From a virus, in IMG/VR virus record IMGVR_UViG_3300045988_104897, positions 1 to 16,409 of that record: a stretch of 16,409 nucleotides of DNA, one strand, 5' to 3'. Positions 1 to 16,409 of the stretch are shown here, one piece after another. The notes below the pieces were generated by a model. It worked only from the letters and a program-made list of their open reading frames with translations. It searched no databases and was not told the DNA's origin. A program made the translations under genes and the position numbers. Position 1 is the first letter of the stretch. Each line of letters starts with the position of its first letter.

Positions 1-5
1 AGCCC

Positions 6-255
6 ACTCCAGCGCAATAAATTACTGTCCACTCCAGCGCAATAAATTACTGCCCGCCCCAGCACAATAAAATCCAGCACACTCCAGCACAGTAAAATCC
101 AGCCCACTCCAGCGCAATAAATTACTGTCCACTCCAGCGCAATAAATTACTGCCCACTCCAGCACAATAAATTACTGTCCACTCCAGCACAATAAAATAC
201 TGCCCACTCCAGCGCAATAAATTACTGCCCACCACAGCCCAATAAAATACTGCAC
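6..255. repeat. Ten head-to-tail 25-bp tandem repeats (iteron-like array), consensus ACTCCAGCRCAATAAAWTACTGYCC
   Basis: Units lie at 6-30, 31-55, 56-80, 81-105, 106-130, 131-155, 156-180, 181-205, 206-230 and 231-255 with no spacers. Positions 1-55 are repeated exactly at 101-155. The array continues in degenerate form to 292. Confidence 0.9.
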
Positions 256-262
256 AGCCCAA

Positions 263-320
263 CGCAATAAATTAATGCGCAATAAATTAATGAACTGATA
301 ATGAACTGATAATGAACTGA
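263..320. repeat. Short tandem repeats: CGCAATAAATTAATG x2 (263-292), then AACTGATAATG x2 plus a partial copy (293-320)
   Basis: Read directly: cgcaataaattaatg cgcaataaattaatg aactgataatg aactgataatg aactga. The mirror copy is at 16090-16147. Confidence 0.85.
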
Positions 321-372
321 AACACATAGCATTTGCCAATGAATAAAATCCAAACAAATTAATCCAAAGCAC

Positions 373-401
373 TAGACATAATCGCCAATGGCTGGTATAT
401 T
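373..401 (+). promoter_or_regulatory. ITR-borne early promoter, left copy: -35 TAGACA, 17-bp spacer, extended -10 TGgTATATT
   Basis: TAGACA at 373-378, TG at 393-394, TATATT at 396-401. SD AAGGAG at 431-436 lies 9 nt upstream of the ATG at 446. Confidence 0.6.
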
Positions 402-445
402 GTAATTGTTCGGAAGGGAACGGAAGATATAAGGAGATTGGGAAG

Positions 446-763
446 ATGTACATTTGCAAGAAATTTACTGCTGAAGATATTGAAAGAATGAATGCAGATA
501 AACGCTGCATCTACAAGGGACAGAGCTATGTAGTAACTAGGTATAGCGTAGATGTTACTAGTGGCATACCCGTGGTCTTTAAAGAAGAAGATATTGCGGC
601 ATTTGGTTTGCCGGCCGATGCCGAGGCATGTTGCATTAGCACATATGCGAACGAACTGGATATTGAGCACGGCATACAATATTTCTATAAAGTTCGGCGT
701 GTAAGAGTATGCGCCTTAAACACCGAACTTGATGGATTGCTAAACATGTACAATAAGGAGTAG
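446..763 (+). CDS. Hypothetical early protein, 105 aa, left arm
   Basis: The ATG falls on the first base after the ITR. SD AAGGAG sits 9 nt upstream inside the ITR. I recognise no motif. Confidence 0.65.
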   Translation: MYICKKFTAEDIERMNADKRCIYKGQSYVVTRYSVDVTSGIPVVFKEEDIAAFGLPADAEACCISTYANELDIEHGIQYFYKVRRVRVCALNTELDGLLNMYNKE

Positions 764-765
764 TA

Positions 766-876
766 ATGCGTATGTATAAGCCTGCTTATATTGTAACTTG
801 CGCCTCTGGTAACGAGTTTGTAGTTAAGCAGTTATACAGTTTTGATGATAAGGTGGAGCAATGGAAAAGCAAATAA
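766..876 (+). CDS. Hypothetical small protein, 36 aa (not in ORF track)
   Basis: AAGGAG at 755-760, 5-nt spacer, ATG at 766. Hand translation: MRMYKPAYIVTCASGNEFVVKQLYSFDDKVEQWKSK, stop TAA at 874-876. It overlaps the next ORF by 16 nt. Confidence 0.35.
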   Translation: MRMYKPAYIVTCASGNEFVVKQLYSFDDKVEQWKSK

Positions 877-1040
877 TAGCGGCGGTATCAATTACCGTAA
901 TTTGCCTCCTGCTAATGGCCCTTGGCTGGTATGTAGGTGGCATTGTAGGCGGCCTAATTTGGTGCGCTGCCCTCCCCTGCGGAATGATCGGAATTGGTTG
1001 GCTGCTAAGCCTGTTAATTAATATAGATGAGTGGTTTTAA
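861..1040 (+). CDS. Small predicted two-pass membrane protein, 59 aa (not in ORF track)
   Basis: Hand translation: MEKQIIAAVSITVICLLLMALGWYVGGIVGGLIWCAALPCGMIGIGWLLSLLINIDEWF. There are two hydrophobic stretches. A GGTGGAG SD-like sequence lies just upstream. The TAA at 1038-1040 abuts the next ATG at 1042. Confidence 0.5.
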   Translation: MEKQIIAAVSITVICLLLMALGWYVGGIVGGLIWCAALPCGMIGIGWLLSLLINIDEWF

Positions 1041-1041
1041 A

Positions 1042-1314
1042 ATGCAGAATGTTTGGAAGCACGCAGAAAGCACGATCTATTTAATTTGTGAATACGTTAA
1101 TAACGGTAATTACGAATTCACCGCAAAACCAGCAGACTTAGACGGCGTAGAAGCCGCAAAAGTGCTAATGAAACTTTCTAAGCATTTGCGAGCCATCGGC
1201 TTAACCGACAGGGCCATTTTTAGAGTAATGCCAAAAATCCTAGCAGAAGCGCCAGGCTGGCGTTTAGCTAATCAAAAGGTTTGGAACTCTAGCGATGATC
1301 GATTGAGGTATTAA
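1042..1314 (+). CDS. Hypothetical early protein, 90 aa
   Basis: ORF-track ORF 1027-1314. I prefer the internal ATG at 1042 (GAGTGG SD-like about 7 nt upstream, 1 nt after the preceding stop). The ATG at 1027 has no SD. Confidence 0.55.
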   Translation: MQNVWKHAESTIYLICEYVNNGNYEFTAKPADLDGVEAAKVLMKLSKHLRAIGLTDRAIFRVMPKILAEAPGWRLANQKVWNSSDDRLRY

Positions 1315-10289: not shown

Positions 10290-10583
10290 TTAATTCTCCT
10301 TATCTGCAAACAAATCATCAATAGATTTCTCTGCAATTTCTTCCTGCGATTCTTCACCCTCTTCGCCCTCGTCAGCAGCGGGAGCGGTTGCGGCGACCAG
10401 CAATTCATAGTTACGCGCGGCGGTTTCCTGATACTTGCGCTCAGCTTCGTCAAGCTTTTCCTCAAGCTCGGAAAGTCGCGCCTGCATTCCTGCCGAAAGA
10501 TCGGCAACGCCTTGGGATACACCGTTACGCCATTCTGACAAATCATCAATTTCGTCCATTGCCAAAAGCTCATCTAGCGTCAT
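10290..10583 (-). CDS. Scaffolding protein, phi29 gp7-like: 97 aa, acidic, coiled-coil
   Basis: It lies directly upstream of the capsid gene and is Glu/Asp/Leu-rich and helical. Its size matches phi29 gp7 (98 aa). AAGGAGG sits 7 nt upstream of the ATG. Confidence 0.7.
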   Translation of the reverse strand: MTLDELLAMDEIDDLSEWRNGVSQGVADLSAGMQARLSELEEKLDEAERKYQETAARNYELLVAATAPAADEGEEGEESQEEIAEKSIDDLFADKEN

Positions 10584-10597
10584 TGGTTTTCCTCCTT

Positions 10598-10642
10598 AAT
10601 AAAATAACCCCTGGTCTATAGCCTTATAGGCATGACCAGGGG
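10598..10642 (-). terminator. Intrinsic terminator-like hairpin, - strand: CCCCUGGUC...GACCAGGGG followed by UUAUUUUAUU
   Basis: A 9-bp GC-rich stem (10608-10616 with 10634-10642) encloses an inner GCCU/AGGC helix. The U-rich tract at 10598-10607 runs straight into the scaffold SD. Confidence 0.6.
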
Positions 10643-10770
10643 TTTAAAGGTCAAGCGCGGCAATTCCGCGAACGCTGATTAAAAAGCCTTGCACTGCTCG
10701 CTATGTAAGGATACCTCACGGTATTGCATTCCTTAATAACTACTTACCAGCGCAGGGGGTGCGCACGCTT
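10598..10770 (-). ncRNA. Candidate structured RNA of roughly 170 nt (pRNA-like packaging RNA, or leader/attenuator of the late operon)
   Basis: Non-coding gap between endolysin and scaffold. The predicted TSS is near 10770 and the terminator ends near 10600. Stem-loops: 10750-10764 (C5 loop), 10707-10734 (GUGA loop plus outer AAGG/CCUU), 10656-10670 (AAUUG loop) and 10608-10642. Confidence 0.3.
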
Positions 10771-10776
10771 AATTGC

Positions 10777-10805
10777 TTTATAGCACTAACCGAGCAATTT
10801 TGCAA
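10777..10805 (-). promoter_or_regulatory. Candidate promoter, - strand: -35 TTGCAA, 17-bp spacer, extended -10 TGcTATAAA, overlapping the endolysin stop codon
   Basis: The - strand reads TTGCAAaattgctcggttagTGcTATAAA. The -35 is at 10800-10805, TG at 10784-10785 and the -10 at 10777-10782. It has the same extended -10 architecture as the ITR promoter. Confidence 0.5.
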
Positions 10806-12190: not shown

Positions 12191-13936
12191 TTATCTAATC
12201 GAAAATGGCCTTGGCACAAGTATAACGCCGCCTTTAACTGCTTGCGGTACGATTTTCCACTTCGATTTATCATGGTAAACCTCGGGCACGTTTTCGCATT
12301 TTTCAAAATCTGTGGTAAATCCAGGGTGAAAATCCTCAATACACATAATCTGTTTAAGCGGATCAACCATTCCCGCACAGGTGTACTCCCATGGTTTGAC
12401 GATCAAATTACCGTTTTTGTCGTGTGTGTACTCTGCTTCTGCGTATGTTTTAGCGCGCAAGCAAACGCAGTCGGCAAAAGCTGCTTCTAAATCCCAATAA
12501 CCTAGTTTTTTAGAATCAATCAAAATATCGCTTGATATTTCTGAACCAATAAAATGAATTGAGTCGGTGTCAGAATAGATAAAGCGATCGCCAAACTTTA
12601 GCGCCGTGCGAATGGTATAATCACGCGCCCAGGCAGTAACAAAAATTCCGACTGGCAAATACACGGGCCTACGCTCGGTTTCCTCCCCCATCACGTAATG
12701 CACAATACCATCAGAATCAAGGCGCGGCACCTTGCCACGTACTTTAATTTTTTGCGCGTATTTTCCATAAGCGTTATTTAACCACAGTTTCCAATTCATG
12801 CGCTCACCGGGGCTTTTAGCGTTCATCTTGCCAACCATGCCAGCATCAACGTATTCCTTGAATAGACCAGTAACGCCGCGAAAATAATACGTATCGCCGT
12901 ACGCTATTACGTCTACCTCGTAGCATTCATTTATCAGTGCCCAATCTACATTGGTAAGCATCATAGTAATAGGATCGTCTATATCGGTTTGGTATTCGCG
13001 ATCGCTAAAAAATAGGCTGCCCTTAACCTGGATACACGGCAATTTGCCGTTTTTCAAATGCGCTGAAAAGGTTATTTCACTGATCCAAAGCGGGTAATTT
13101 TCGCTTTTAATTGGCTTTCCTGGATGCAAAAGCGGCTTACCTACTGGCAAGCATCTATCATGCATAACAAAAGGATAAAGCGAATTTACGTCAATTCGCC
13201 CGCCCTCCCCTAGGTGCTTATTTACATGCGCGGGGTTTGCGTATACGTAACCACCTCGATACGCTTTTCGAAGTATTGAATCTAGCTCGGGGTCAAGCTC
13301 GGGAAACTTAACGCGCCATTGGCGTTTACCGAATAGATCCTTTAGCGCGGCTAAACAGTCTGCGCCAGTGGTTAATTTAGCGCCTAATTCAAAGCGATGA
13401 TCGAGCGCTTTAGCCAGGATCAAAACATCGCGGCGCAAATAGTCCAATTCAAGCGCGGTTAAAATATGCCCTGGCTCACGGTATTCGTTATAGTCTATCT
13501 CGCCTTTAGTCATTGGCAAACCGTAAGCATCCGCAACATTTGCGAGCGTCATAGGCAGTTTTTTATAACTGTCTGCGATTTCAAAAGTAGAACATTCGGT
13601 CGTAATTTGCATATGGTAGAACTTGCCTAAGCTATCCATAAGCAAAGTAAATTCTCCCGCGCCTGGCTCGCGCGCCTCGACGTGTATAAAACCAGTTGTG
13701 AGCAGCCATGAAATAATAAATTTACTATCAAATCCAGCGTTGTGAAACCAATAGCGGCCTGGATGATCGAACGCCCATGCCATAAATGATTCTATGCTAG
13801 TGCCATATTCAAATAGATCATCTGTGTTGGCACCAACTGGGGCAACTCCCCATGCCCATACAGGATTTGCAGCACAACCCTCTGCGCTAGTGTTGGTTTC
13901 AAAATCGGCCGAATATTCAATAACAGGCTTTTTCAT
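12191..13936 (-). CDS. Protein-primed family-B DNA polymerase, phi29 gp2-like
   Basis: ExoI YSADFETNT (phi29 YSCDFETTT), ExoII FHNAGFDSKFIISWL, ExoIII YLRRDVLILAKAL. Motif A DVNSLYPFVM, motif B KLWLNNAYGKYA, motif C YSDTDSIHF, and the C-terminal CAGM. Confidence 0.97.
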   Translation of the reverse strand: MKKPVIEYSADFETNTSAEGCAANPVWAWGVAPVGANTDDLFEYGTSIESFMAWAFDHPGRYWFHNAGFDSKFIISWLLTTGFIHVEAREPGAGEFTLLMDSLGKFYHMQITTECSTFEIADSYKKLPMTLANVADAYGLPMTKGEIDYNEYREPGHILTALELDYLRRDVLILAKALDHRFELGAKLTTGADCLAALKDLFGKRQWRVKFPELDPELDSILRKAYRGGYVYANPAHVNKHLGEGGRIDVNSLYPFVMHDRCLPVGKPLLHPGKPIKSENYPLWISEITFSAHLKNGKLPCIQVKGSLFFSDREYQTDIDDPITMMLTNVDWALINECYEVDVIAYGDTYYFRGVTGLFKEYVDAGMVGKMNAKSPGERMNWKLWLNNAYGKYAQKIKVRGKVPRLDSDGIVHYVMGEETERRPVYLPVGIFVTAWARDYTIRTALKFGDRFIYSDTDSIHFIGSEISSDILIDSKKLGYWDLEAAFADCVCLRAKTYAEAEYTHDKNGNLIVKPWEYTCAGMVDPLKQIMCIEDFHPGFTTDFEKCENVPEVYHDKSKWKIVPQAVKGGVILVPRPFSIR

Positions 13937-14742
13937 TTGCCGATGAATTGCAAAAGTTCTTTTAACGCTGTTTCAGATGCAGTCGATTCACCAGCGCTAG
14001 GGGAGCGATGGCCCTCTTCATACTCTGTTTGATACTGCCATGTATCGACCAATACCCCAAAATCAGTGTAAAAATGAAGGTATGACATTTCATCAGCTGA
14101 CAATTTTGAAAGCCTCTTCAAAAGTGATTCGTCTATATCATTGTCTCTTAGCTTATTAATAACGGCTTGCTTGTATTGCAAAAGCCTATCAGTATCAAGC
14201 GAGGAAGTAAGGCGCGATTTGATTTTCTCGTAGCTTGATTTTGCGCCTGGTTTAAATTCCGTCTCACGAATTACGGGCTTGATAGCGCTAAAACGCCCGT
14301 CGTCTATAGCGTATTCCATCGGCGATTCAATAAAATCAATGTTACGTACTTGCGATTCGGGGATTTTATTTAAAACAGTTTCGCGAATGCTTTTAAGTCG
14401 AGCGGCATTTTCAGCCCGAATAACGTTCAATTCGGCTTCTTCCAAGCGGCGTTGCCATAATTCAGTGCTCATTATGGGCGTTCCCTCGCGCTGAATTACT
14501 ACCTCGATACCTTTGTTAAAGGTATATGCGTTTTCACGGGCGTTAAATTCGCGAAGCTTCTGCGCATACTGGCGTTTTTCAACCGCGCTCATTCCTTTTA
14601 GCTCGGCTGCTGGAATTACTGGATTAAAAGCGGCTGAAATTTGCGCATTAATTGCACCTTTCTTGCGCAAGCGGTATAATTTGTTTCGGGCATTCTTTTG
14701 CAAGCGCGACACTTCTTTGTCTAACTCGGTTCGCTTCTTCAT
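13933..14742 (-). CDS. Terminal protein (replication primer), phi29 gp3-like, 269 aa
   Basis: It lies directly upstream of the polymerase with an ATGA stop/start overlap. The N-terminus is basic: VSRLQKNARNKLYRLRKKG (phi29 YARLVKNTKAKIARTKKKYG). Its size matches phi29 TP (266 aa). I chose the start at ATG 14742 (AGGAGG upstream) over the SD-less ATG at 14781. Confidence 0.75.
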   Translation of the reverse strand: MKKRTELDKEVSRLQKNARNKLYRLRKKGAINAQISAAFNPVIPAAELKGMSAVEKRQYAQKLREFNARENAYTFNKGIEVVIQREGTPIMSTELWQRRLEEAELNVIRAENAARLKSIRETVLNKIPESQVRNIDFIESPMEYAIDDGRFSAIKPVIRETEFKPGAKSSYEKIKSRLTSSLDTDRLLQYKQAVINKLRDNDIDESLLKRLSKLSADEMSYLHFYTDFGVLVDTWQYQTEYEEGHRSPSAGESTASETALKELLQFIGK

Positions 14743-14784
14743 TGCCCCTCCTAATCTCCTGCCCCTCCTAGTGAGGGGCATTCT

Positions 14785-14831: not shown

Positions 14832-15257
14832 TTAGCCGATAAGTTTAAAAGTAAGCATGGATCCAAGACGAACCTTACGGTTAATAATCTCGATCGTTGC
14901 GGGGTTATCCGCATCAATAACGGGGCGAATTGTCTTCAAACGCTGCAACGCCTGGTAAAGGCCAACCGACTGCGCTTCATACGTTGCACCGTCTGCGTCG
15001 GTAATTACAATATGCGGGCGGTTTTCCAGTTCACCAGTAAGCTGGTTTACTGCTTCTATAGGCTCAACAAGCCAGGCAATCATGACAATGGTTTTGCCCG
15101 CAAAGTCCGAAAGCTTGTAATCAGATGCAACACCGGCATTGAAGGCCGCAATCTGGCCTGCTTCGGTAGACAGATCGTAAGATGCAGCAAACCCATAATT
15201 TGCGTTACCGGTAGCAATCTCGGTTACTTCTGCGTTTGCAATCTCCGTGTTTTCCAT
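14832..15257 (-). CDS. Single-stranded DNA-binding protein, phi29 gp5-like
   Basis: MENTEI... (phi29 gp5 MENTNI...), STEAGQIAAFNA (phi29 TLEGQIKIFNA), ITDADGATYEAQS (phi29 IFAADGSLYSAIS) and C-terminal RLGSMLTFKLI (phi29 KGNVFFSLQL). AAGGAG sits 9 nt upstream. Matches are from memory of the gp5 sequence. Confidence 0.65.
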   Translation of the reverse strand: MENTEIANAEVTEIATGNANYGFAASYDLSTEAGQIAAFNAGVASDYKLSDFAGKTIVMIAWLVEPIEAVNQLTGELENRPHIVITDADGATYEAQSVGLYQALQRLKTIRPVIDADNPATIEIINRKVRLGSMLTFKLIG

Positions 15258-15282: not shown

Positions 15283-15540
15283 CTAGTCAATTTCCTTGCT
15301 GTCATAGCATTTGGCAGATGAATAGAATTCATCCAACGGCATAACATACACCTTGCTTACCTGCTTGGGGCGCTGAATTGAAATATCTTCACCAAACTCT
15401 TTTGCAGCTAGATTGAAGATACGCGCCATGCCAGCGGCAGCAGGATATTCACGCGTGGCGATCTTTTTACCATTGCGGCAAATGTCGCAAGTGGTAACGT
15501 TTTTAGTACGCCAAACATGTTTAGCCTTGGTTACATGCAA
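15283..15540 (-). CDS. Candidate dsDNA-binding, histone-like early protein (phi29 p6-like), 85 aa, TTG start
   Basis: It lies immediately upstream of SSB, matching phi29 gene order 6-5. It has the strongest SD in the genome (AAGGAGGTGA, 6-nt spacer) before the TTG at 15540. Weak resemblances to p6: RTKNVTTCDI versus TKTTVNVAKM, and KVYVMPLDEFYSSA versus EVYELPVEKFLEVA. Confidence 0.4.
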   Translation of the reverse strand: MHVTKAKHVWRTKNVTTCDICRNGKKIATREYPAAAGMARIFNLAAKEFGEDISIQRPKQVSKVYVMPLDEFYSSAKCYDSKEID

Positions 15541-15749
15541 TTTTGGTCACCTCCTTTTGCTAACTCGGTGCTTTCCAAGTCTTCTATCTCACACGCGAGC
15601 CAGTCTAGCAAATCGCGCATAGAGTCTAAATAGCATCTACCAACGTAGTTAGCGCCGTTATCGGCCTCGACGGCTATTTTGTAACAATGCAGTTCTTTGC
15701 TGTAGTTAACTGATACTGTTATTATTCTTCCAACAGATCGCCTAGACAT
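15531..15749 (-). CDS. Hypothetical early protein, 72 aa
   Basis: GAGGAG sits 8 nt upstream of the ATG at 15749. It overlaps the upstream ORF by 28 nt and the downstream ORF by 10 nt. I recognise no motif. Confidence 0.55.
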   Translation of the reverse strand: MSRRSVGRIITVSVNYSKELHCYKIAVEADNGANYVGRCYLDSMRDLLDWLACEIEDLESTELAKGGDQNCM

Positions 15750-15916: not shown

Positions 15917-16008
15917 AATTACCACTCTTCTATAAAGCGTACACCGTCAACTTCAATAATGAAGCTTCCCAATCTCCTTATATCTTCCGTTCCCTTCCGA
16001 ACAATTAC

Positions 16009-16037
16009 AATATACCAGCCATTGGCGATTATGTCTA
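16009..16037 (-). promoter_or_regulatory. ITR-borne early promoter, right copy, firing inward on the - strand
   Basis: Exact mirror of 373-401: -10 at 16009-16014 and -35 at 16032-16037. It points into the - strand early operon. Confidence 0.6.
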
Positions 16038-16154
16038 GTGCTTTGGATTAATTTGTTTGGATTTTATTCATTGGCAAATGCTATGTGTTTCAGTTCATTA
16101 TCAGTTCATTATCAGTTCATTAATTTATTGCGCATTAATTTATTGCGTTGGGCT

Positions 16155-16404
16155 GTGCAGTATTTTATTGGGCTGTGGTGGGCAGTAATTTATTGCGCTG
16201 GAGTGGGCAGTATTTTATTGTGCTGGAGTGGACAGTAATTTATTGTGCTGGAGTGGGCAGTAATTTATTGCGCTGGAGTGGACAGTAATTTATTGCGCTG
16301 GAGTGGGCTGGATTTTACTGTGCTGGAGTGTGCTGGATTTTATTGTGCTGGGGCGGGCAGTAATTTATTGCGCTGGAGTGGACAGTAATTTATTGCGCTG
16401 GAGT
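16155..16404. repeat. Mirror copy of the 25-bp tandem array in the right ITR
   Basis: Reverse complement of 6-255, for example ggacagtaatttattgcgctggagt units at the right end. Confidence 0.9.
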
Positions 16405-16409
16405 GGGCT

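Follow-up and report, generated by a model that had tools for sequence, protein, structure and literature searches.

A tandem array of 25-bp units occupies the outer part of both inverted terminal repeats (ITRs) of a phi29-like phage genome, and we give about an even chance to the reading that it is a sequence-encoded, optional, and rapidly evolving platform for a nucleoprotein complex of the phage's own p6-like protein, by analogy with phage phi29. A landing pad for this protein is the most plausible role because the phage encodes a distant relative of phi29 p6. A platform of this kind had been proposed in a sequence-only reading of the same DNA, and that interpretation is partly supported, by the p6 homologue, by the position of the array, and by the phased terminal repeats found across the clade.

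The Phage and Its Relatives

The whole stretch of DNA that was analysed, referred to as the window (16,409 bp), comprises nearly all of the genome of a phi29-like podophage. Searches of Pfam and PHROGs identified a gp16-type packaging ATPase, a connector, a tail knob, and a Phi29-type major capsid protein, together with a GH25 endolysin, a holin, a protein-primed family B DNA polymerase (PolB), and a phi29-type single-stranded DNA-binding protein (SSB); this gene content bears out the earlier assignment to the phi29-like phages. The gene order resembles that of Actinomyces phage Av-1. The putative terminal protein (TP), placed by its position, gave no match in Pfam or PHROGs. Megablast returned no close deposited phage, and the polymerase of the window has about 39% identity to its best cultured counterparts. 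Relatives of the phage are abundant in human-gut metagenomes. Their host signal is contradictory, since the bins that hold them belong to Bacteroidaceae, Clostridiales, Bacilli, and others. The 25-bp unit of the window was sought in IMG/VR and was absent, and the contigs found by exact-protein look-ups for more ends all stop short of the genome ends.

The largest internal noncoding gap of the window (10574-10785, 212 nt, minus strand) has a predicted fold of −71.8 kcal/mol (z −3.5), in which a branched domain of about 130 nt precedes a strong hairpin and a U-tract. The gap may encode a small RNA, perhaps the packaging RNA (pRNA). Rfam detected no pRNA anywhere within the window and gave no match inside the ITR, and a known RNA family or pRNA in the ITR was rejected on these grounds. 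The early genes that adjoin the ITRs switch ends between the window (446-1314) and its relative L001 (282-733), and the polymerase-proximal end of L001 carries homologues of the 105-aa and 59-aa ORFs of the window's left end.

Table 1: Coordinates of the terminal and replication features of the window.
Feature	Position	Strand	Basis or remark
Left ITR as assembled	1..445	+	100% reverse-complementary to 15965-16409
Ten 25-bp units in strict register, core CAATAAAWT	6..255	+	Preceded by a partial unit (1-5)
Innermost unit (256-280) overlapping 15-bp x2 repeat CGCAATAAATTAATG (263-292)	256..292	+	
11-bp x3 repeat TAATGAACTGA, holding the TGAAC pentamer	288..320	+	Mirror at 16090-16122
Conserved inner ITR	321..445	+	Identical in five sister assemblies; highly conserved in relatives
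Predicted sigma-70-type early promoter, TAGACA-17-TATATT, extended TG	373-401	+	Promoter-like sequence
Ribosome-binding site (RBS) AAGGAG	431-436	+	Followed by ATG at 446
Protein-primed family B DNA polymerase	12191..13936	-	PF03175, E 1.4e-48; phrog_1907, E 8.5e-126
Putative terminal protein	13933..14781	-	Position only: between SSB and polymerase genes, as in Av-1
Phi29-type single-stranded DNA-binding protein	14832..15257	-	PF17427, E 4.3e-7; phrog_6243
85-aa early gene, TTG start, candidate array binder	15283..15540	-	Remote homologue of phi29 protein p6; just upstream of SSB gene
Right ITR	15965..16409	-	Inner boundary at GGGAAG microhomology in a decayed small ORF
Mirror of predicted promoter	16009-16037	-	
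Mirror of innermost unit and 15-bp x2 repeat	16118..16154	-	
Mirror copy of the ten 25-bp units	16155..16404	-	Tandem Repeats Finder, core count

Anatomy of the Terminal Array

Tandem Repeats Finder described the left end as a period of 25 with 11.1 copies and 85% matches (2-278), followed by the 15-bp and 11-bp repeats, and the right end mirrors all three. The degenerate core CARTAAAWT occurs 12 times per end, with a spacing of exactly 25 bp from position 15 to 265 and then of 15 bp to 280. It is matched 27 times in the window against 1.9 expected, a count that none of 200 shuffles reached. Within 6..255 the autocorrelation at lag 25 is 0.82. The periodogram of A/T versus G/C letters (W/S) gives z 35 at 25 bp and z 11 at the 12.5-bp harmonic, the latter only modestly above what a single block would produce, as the unit holds one main A/T block and not two. 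The strand that ends 5′ is A+C-rich; the window unit contains both A and T, and its strand purity is below that of the ends of relatives.

The array recognised in the sequence-only reading is thus real, on the strength of the repeat finder, the excess of cores, and five sister assemblies described below. Its count of 12 cores per end, one of them CAGTAAA, was confirmed. The ten units of 6-255 keep the perfect register ascribed to them; they are not identical, and units 3, 4, and 10 depart from the consensus that had been given. The two degenerate units placed at 256-277 and 278-292 have to be replaced by one full 25-nt unit (256-280) that overlaps the 15-bp repeat. The element at 256..292 corresponds to a single-copy boundary element of the relatives.

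Contig End and Genome Terminus

Positions 1-55 recur at 101-155, with a match of exactly 55 nt. A de Bruijn assembler run at k=55 leaves just such an exact 55-nt self-overlap where it meets a repeat loop, and the contigs of two unrelated relatives (L001 and L014) likewise stop at an exact 55-nt self-overlap within their arrays. Since its terminal 55-mer recurs in this way, the contig end of the window is an assembler limit and not the genome terminus. The recurrence had been seen in the sequence-only reading and taken as a 100-bp higher-order duplication; the match holds, whereas the duplication is at least partly an assembly boundary. The same reading had observed that the window starts mid-unit, with the tail AGCCC, and had cautioned that terminus and copy number may be limited by the assembly, which the self-overlap bears out. 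The figures of 60% of the ITR and of 12 copies are lower bounds for this reason.

The loop signature could also suggest that the array itself is a misassembled or chimeric contig end. This has a nearly negligible probability: the same units, in the 25-bp register of the window, adjoin an identical inner ITR in five more assemblies, which were obtained from different samples and with different assemblers, and an array whose unit family recurs in five independent assemblies beside the same sequence is not an artefact. All five of these assemblies also end inside the array.

The actual end of these genomes is indicated by contigs of different subclades that start with GTGTAG, namely L098 (reverse complement, 1-40), L031 (1-40), and L015 (1-40), while L033 (1-45) begins with GTAG; in each of them a short motif with a C-run follows. 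This start, which the window lacks, probably represents the true, protein-linked terminus of the clade together with its minimal origin. In the relatives that reach it, the arrays start about 45 nt from the end. The 25-bp units are not the kind of repeat (a terminal reiteration of 1-4 nt) that serves sliding-back or jumping-back. Truncation of contig ends at assembler k-mer loops across the clade implies that database entries give only lower bounds for ITR lengths and termini.

Inner ITR and Early Promoter

Outward of about position 320 the sequence is lineage-specific, unlike the conserved segment 321-445. The latter contains the only promoter-like site within 1-1400, a predicted promoter about 80 bp inside of the array. 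Judged from the sequence, each end would therefore carry an early promoter firing inward with the array upstream of it. The array lies between the unassembled terminus and this predicted promoter, in an order like that of the phi29 right end, which lends support to the platform proposed in the sequence-only reading.

Just inside the right ITR, 15919-15969 (minus strand) reads GSFIIEVDGVRFIEEW*. It is the decayed remnant, with start and middle gone, of an early gene of about 80 aa that is intact in L008 and L161. The location of the ITR junction at the GGGAAG microhomology within this decayed ORF points to a recent copying of one end onto the other.

Variation among Sister Strains and Close Relatives

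The sister set comprises six assemblies, the window included, which share an identical inner ITR; the five others come from other samples and assemblers (k119, k141, SPAdes, JGI). Sister strains have an identical 105-aa ORF as well, and keep the 25-bp register. They differ in unit variants and unit order, and have one or two copies of the 15-mer and two of the 11-mer, of which the window has three. With these differences in order and copy number across six assemblies, the array can be described as a strain-variable ITR minisatellite. Over the 40 units of the window lineage, the core CAATAAAWT is almost invariant, with variation only at the W position and in one G substitution, while 13 of the 16 flank positions vary.

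Relatives whose polymerase is 91-94% identical to that of the window carry a 39-bp array (L001), a 45-bp array (L009), a 75-bp duplication (L159), or no array (L007/L098 and L156), and the 39-, 45-, and 75-bp units are unrelated in sequence to the window unit. All of them have a single-copy element, CACAAC..CAATAAAAYAATG, at the boundary between array and inner ITR, and from a comparison of sequences the window and L001 arrays look like amplifications of different halves of this one element. The p6-like protein of these relatives is 91-96% identical to that of the window. Because a nearly identical protein coexists with arrays of 39, 45, or 75 bp or with none, the array is optional and dispensable. 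A sequence-specific recognition by the 85-aa protein can be dismissed, as the protein is conserved to this degree while the arrays differ.

The ITRs are 100% identical within each genome, and their length in relatives varies between 257 bp and at least 700 bp (L001/L091, L009/L092, L007/L095, L045/L103); that of L001 duplicates two early genes at both ends. The spread of ITR lengths, the differing arrays, and the GGGAAG junction in the decayed ORF together indicate that the ends are often remodelled and rehomogenised.

Such turnover is what would be expected of a neutral terminal minisatellite, that is, a weakly constrained origin-promoter region with no function beyond spacing, in which slippage, unequal recombination, or out-of-register ITR pairing amplifies a sequence and ITR homogenisation copies it to both ends. 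This explanation is a serious rival to the platform model, and we regard it as rather unlikely. It accounts for the way in which strains that share the inner ITR vary in the order and number of their units, for the unrelated or missing units of close relatives, for the apparent origin of two arrays from halves of one boundary element, for perfect ITRs of variable length, and for the location of an ITR boundary within a decayed ORF, at a microhomology of 6 bp. A nearly invariant core beside variable flanks is not expected from neutral slippage, nor are the recurrent unit lengths, the A/T phasing of unrelated sequences, and the strong strand bias that are described below for the clade.

The conserved core could alternatively mark a reiterated operator, in which the CAATAAAWT and/or TGAAC repeats are bound by a different, sequence-specific factor that controls the ITR promoters, either the variable 72-aa product of 15531-15749 or a host protein. 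In line with this possibility, a single CAATAAAA element is found at the corresponding place in array-free relatives, and the 72-aa ORF varies (44-83% identity) among relatives with different arrays. We consider an operator improbable. Pfam, PHROGs, and PDB sequence searches found no DNA-binding domain in the small ORFs, and sites spaced at 25 bp are out of the helical phase in which operators are usually bound cooperatively. The motifs that also bear on this explanation are treated with the clade-wide data.

The p6-Like Protein

Phi29 p6 is the textbook example of a low-specificity protein that builds an origin-activating and promoter-silencing superhelix. The 85-aa product of 15283-15540, which the sequence-only reading had singled out as the first candidate for binding the array, is a remote homologue of p6. 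Pfam and PDB sequence searches found no match for it, and found nothing for the other small ORFs. Its AF2 model has a pLDDT of 81, and in a Foldseek search of 350,542 PDB chains the only match below 1e-3 was phi29 p6 (8pw4_A; E 4.5e-4, probability 1.00, TM 0.45, 83 columns, 18% identity). With hhalign, the family of the 85-aa protein aligned to the p6 family alignment (probability 79%, E 1.6e-5) through the segment VY.MP.(D/E).F...A, and an alignment to just the single sequence of phi29 p6 was weak. Both the p6 HMM and that of the 85-aa ORF match identical ORFs of 75-127 aa upstream of the SSB gene in about 45 relatives, and an HMM bridged through p6 and these intermediates aligned residues 7-79 of the 85-aa ORF (21 bits, E 1.4e-8). 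The gene position agrees, since the window order of p6-like protein, SSB, putative TP, and PolB is that of phi29 genes 6-5-(4)-3-2. By remote homology, the genome therefore encodes a p6-family double-stranded DNA-binding protein.

Almost all metagenomic relatives have a detectable p6-family protein (75-127 aa) encoded upstream of their SSB (L010-L075, about 10-1500 nt; L105, 8292-8582). In L116, a 57-aa early ORF (21-194) just upstream of the p6-like gene has a precomputed Pfam match to AcrIC5, an anti-CRISPR family.

Phasing across the Clade

Many ends of the wider clade carry tandem arrays of unrelated sequence, with periods of 13, 15, 25-27, 39, 45, 52-54, 63-67, and 75 bp. A period common to all arrays can be rejected on these values. 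A quantisation at multiples of about 13 bp is suggestive, an idea formed after seeing the data. Units of about 25-27 bp arose independently in the window, the L014 group, L033/L193, L183, and L192.

In the W/S periodogram, the best period lies at 12-13.75 bp with z of at least 5 in 15 of the 26 terminal regions chosen to represent lineages, which are unrelated in sequence and include ends without a tandem repeat; a peak in this range was obtained in 3.7% of 215 internal 200-bp windows. Later metagenome and genome scans for A+C-rich ends without sequence shared with earlier loci gave four ends, all of which show the 12-13.75-bp phasing, two of them new (L176 and L237) and two already contained in the first set (L183 and L193). 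No lineage peaks at 10.5 bp. The phi29 left end, treated in the same way as the clade, peaks at 12.0 bp.

The nearest relatives are an exception. L009, L159, and L156 lie near 15 bp, L001 has a peak only at 8 bp, and L098 has no significant period, so that the 12/24-bp periodic pattern that favours p6 binding is present in the window and the clade and is not found in L001, L009, L156, and L159. As these relatives have a nearly identical p6-like protein, any requirement for phasing must be loose. With this exception, the likeness between a 25-bp periodicity and p6, first drawn in the sequence-only reading, holds clade-wide through the A/T phasing and the recurrent units. That reading had also called for a comparison with related genomes and had named a lack of phased terminal repeats in them as evidence against a platform; related genomes carry such repeats, and this objection does not arise, whereas the array as such is not conserved.

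Strand Bias and Terminal Motifs

In every contig of the wider clade that reaches the outer end, the strand ending 5′ is A+C-rich, with 2-11% G. The bias was seen in about 25 related contigs, over their initial 100-400 nt (e.g., L009, L027, L036, L040, and L041), and over 1-292 of the window, and in the most extreme cases G makes up only 2-4%. Its polarity is that of the CA/GT asymmetry of eukaryotic telomeres; it is mild in phi29 and absent in Av-1. The platform model leaves this bias unexplained. Deamination of the displaced strand predicts a skew of the opposite sign and was discarded as its source. G-quadruplexes were set aside as well, there being too few G-runs on the G-strand of the window.

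The bias is part of what makes conceivable a buffer for end maintenance or an aid to panhandle formation, in which a hairpin-free displaced strand lets the ITR copies pair quickly in any register, so that the duplex origin is regenerated and damaged ends are repaired. The A+C-rich 5′ strand is a clade-wide trait, the ITRs are long, perfect, and variable in length, and the array varies as register slippage would produce. We hold this explanation to be highly improbable. Replication of the phi29 type needs no panhandle, the window unit with both A and T is less strand-pure than its relatives, the phasing at about 13 and 25 bp is left unexplained, and the model is purely inferential.

Among short motifs, no k-mer is common to the lineages beyond the expectation from composition other than the core CAAATAAT, which occurs in five lineages against 0.3 expected and is similar to CAATAAAWT. 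A Chi-like or anti-nuclease motif on the G+T strand was rejected, since no 6-8-mer apart from this one is shared. Protein-capped ends make such a motif unlikely a priori. The pentamer TGAAC/GTTCA occurs 38 times in the terminal noncoding regions of the clade, where 4.9 are expected and where none of 500 shuffles gave more than 14. Its sites include the window (288-320, in the core of the 11-bp repeat), L033 (45-170), L193 (51-145), L027 (166-230), L036 (148-160), and L009 (1-300); other lineages have it inside their 13- and 25-bp units, some of them as TGAAC-N3-GTTCA palindromes. TGAAC/GTTCA may be a sequence-specific site. Both motifs speak for an operator, while the absence of any further shared k-mer speaks against it.

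Proposed Role of the Array

We infer binding, wrapping, origin activation, and promoter repression by the p6-like protein from the analogy with phi29. The array would be a fast-evolving tandem amplification of an A/T-cored element, situated between the unassembled protein-capped terminus and the conserved early promoter and kept identical at both ends by ITR homogenisation. It would offer the 85-aa protein a sequence-encoded, high-density track for nucleation and positioning. On this track the protein would polymerise along A/T patches that recur at 25 bp (two 12.5-bp steps), and the polymer would wrap the DNA into a superhelix. Wrapping would help to open the nearby end for TP-primed initiation and would occlude the ITR promoter. 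Such occlusion would amount to negative feedback, because the right-hand ITR promoter is positioned, as far as its location indicates, to drive the operon that contains the p6-like gene.

A broader reading, which we put forward tentatively and hold to be possible and short of probable, is that phi29-like phages of the gut as a group hard-wire the binding track of a p6-family organiser into their DNA ends. Such tracks would consist of A/T patches phased at about 12.5-13.5 bp, often in tandem units of about 25 bp, with a CA-rich 5′ strand, and would turn over as fast as minisatellites with the phasing kept. If this is true, it would be a telomere-like, protein-templated end structure for protein-primed replicons, so far undescribed. 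The literature searched contains no description of such arrays in phi29-like phages, in line with the sequence-only reading, which named none. A phage family that spells out the p6 pattern would provide a comparative and experimental series, with units of 13, 25-27, 39, 52, and 64-65 bp and array-free relatives, in which the way that phasing sets nucleation could be tested. The p6 family would also extend well beyond Salasmaviridae, and a route to better artificial origins for phi29-type amplification systems may be opened.

Comparison with Known Systems

The array resembles the iterons of plasmid and phage origins in its phased direct repeats adjoining an origin, with a conserved core and variable flanks. 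The term, applied to the array in the sequence-only reading, does not hold in its strict sense. Origin iterons need a Rep-type initiator, whereas the window replicates by protein priming from its ends; its replication genes are PolB, a putative TP, SSB, and the p6-like protein, with no cognate sequence-specific initiator among them. Nor is the repeat conserved among related replicons, close relatives having unrelated 39-, 45-, and 75-bp units or none. The candidate binder belongs to a family described as low in sequence specificity, unlike an iteron-binding Rep.

Tandem-repeat blocks in poxvirus ITRs (telomere-adjacent minisatellites) are similar in that they lie between the terminus and the first genes and vary in copy number and order between strains. 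Poxvirus termini are hairpins and not protein-capped, and their units and mechanism of replication are unrelated to those of the window phage. Adenovirus shares with the window a protein-primed linear genome whose ITRs are kept identical, through panhandle formation or strand switching, and can change in length; its ITRs hold defined factor-binding sites and not long phased arrays.

The closest system is phi29. The nucleator of its p6 complex has, to our knowledge, been described so far only as a “bendability pattern.” It has been reported that each p6 dimer takes up 24 bp, that its two monomers are centred 12 bp apart, that p6 wraps the DNA in a right-handed superhelix, and that it is displaced by the minor-groove ligand distamycin A (PMC10899789). 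Nucleation takes place at 62-125 from the right end and at 46-68 from the left end, and p6 activates initiation and shuts off the early promoter C2 (PMC10899789). In the phi29 record, C2 lies about 125-160 bp from the right end and reads inward.

The p6 complex of phi29 (PDB 8PW2/8PW4) and the window share a protein-primed linear genome in which a p6-family gene precedes that of the SSB. At the phi29 right end the order is terminus, p6 nucleation region, and inward early promoter C2, and the array is the candidate for the second of these in the same order. The 25-bp unit is comparable to the 24-bp repeat of the p6 dimer, and its A/T patches fit the displacement of p6 by distamycin A. The differences are equally clear. 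Phi29 has no tandem repeat, and p6 recognises a diffuse bendability pattern in ends whose ITR is 6 bp long, whereas the window has an explicit, hypervariable tandem array inside a 445-bp ITR, and has close relatives without an array. The p6-like protein is only remotely similar to phi29 p6, and is a candidate for binding the array.

A parallel is also found in the laboratory. The 24-bp unit of the phi29 left-end recognition region has been used as a concatemer to model the p6 complex (PMC10899789, its refs 27 and 86), and on concatemeric DNA p6 prefers asymmetric dimer sites (PMC10899789). These concatemers and the window array are both head-to-tail repeats of an asymmetric unit of about 24-25 bp with A/T patches. 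The former were built from phi29 left-end sequence, while the latter is natural, of a different sequence, and has a period of 25 bp.
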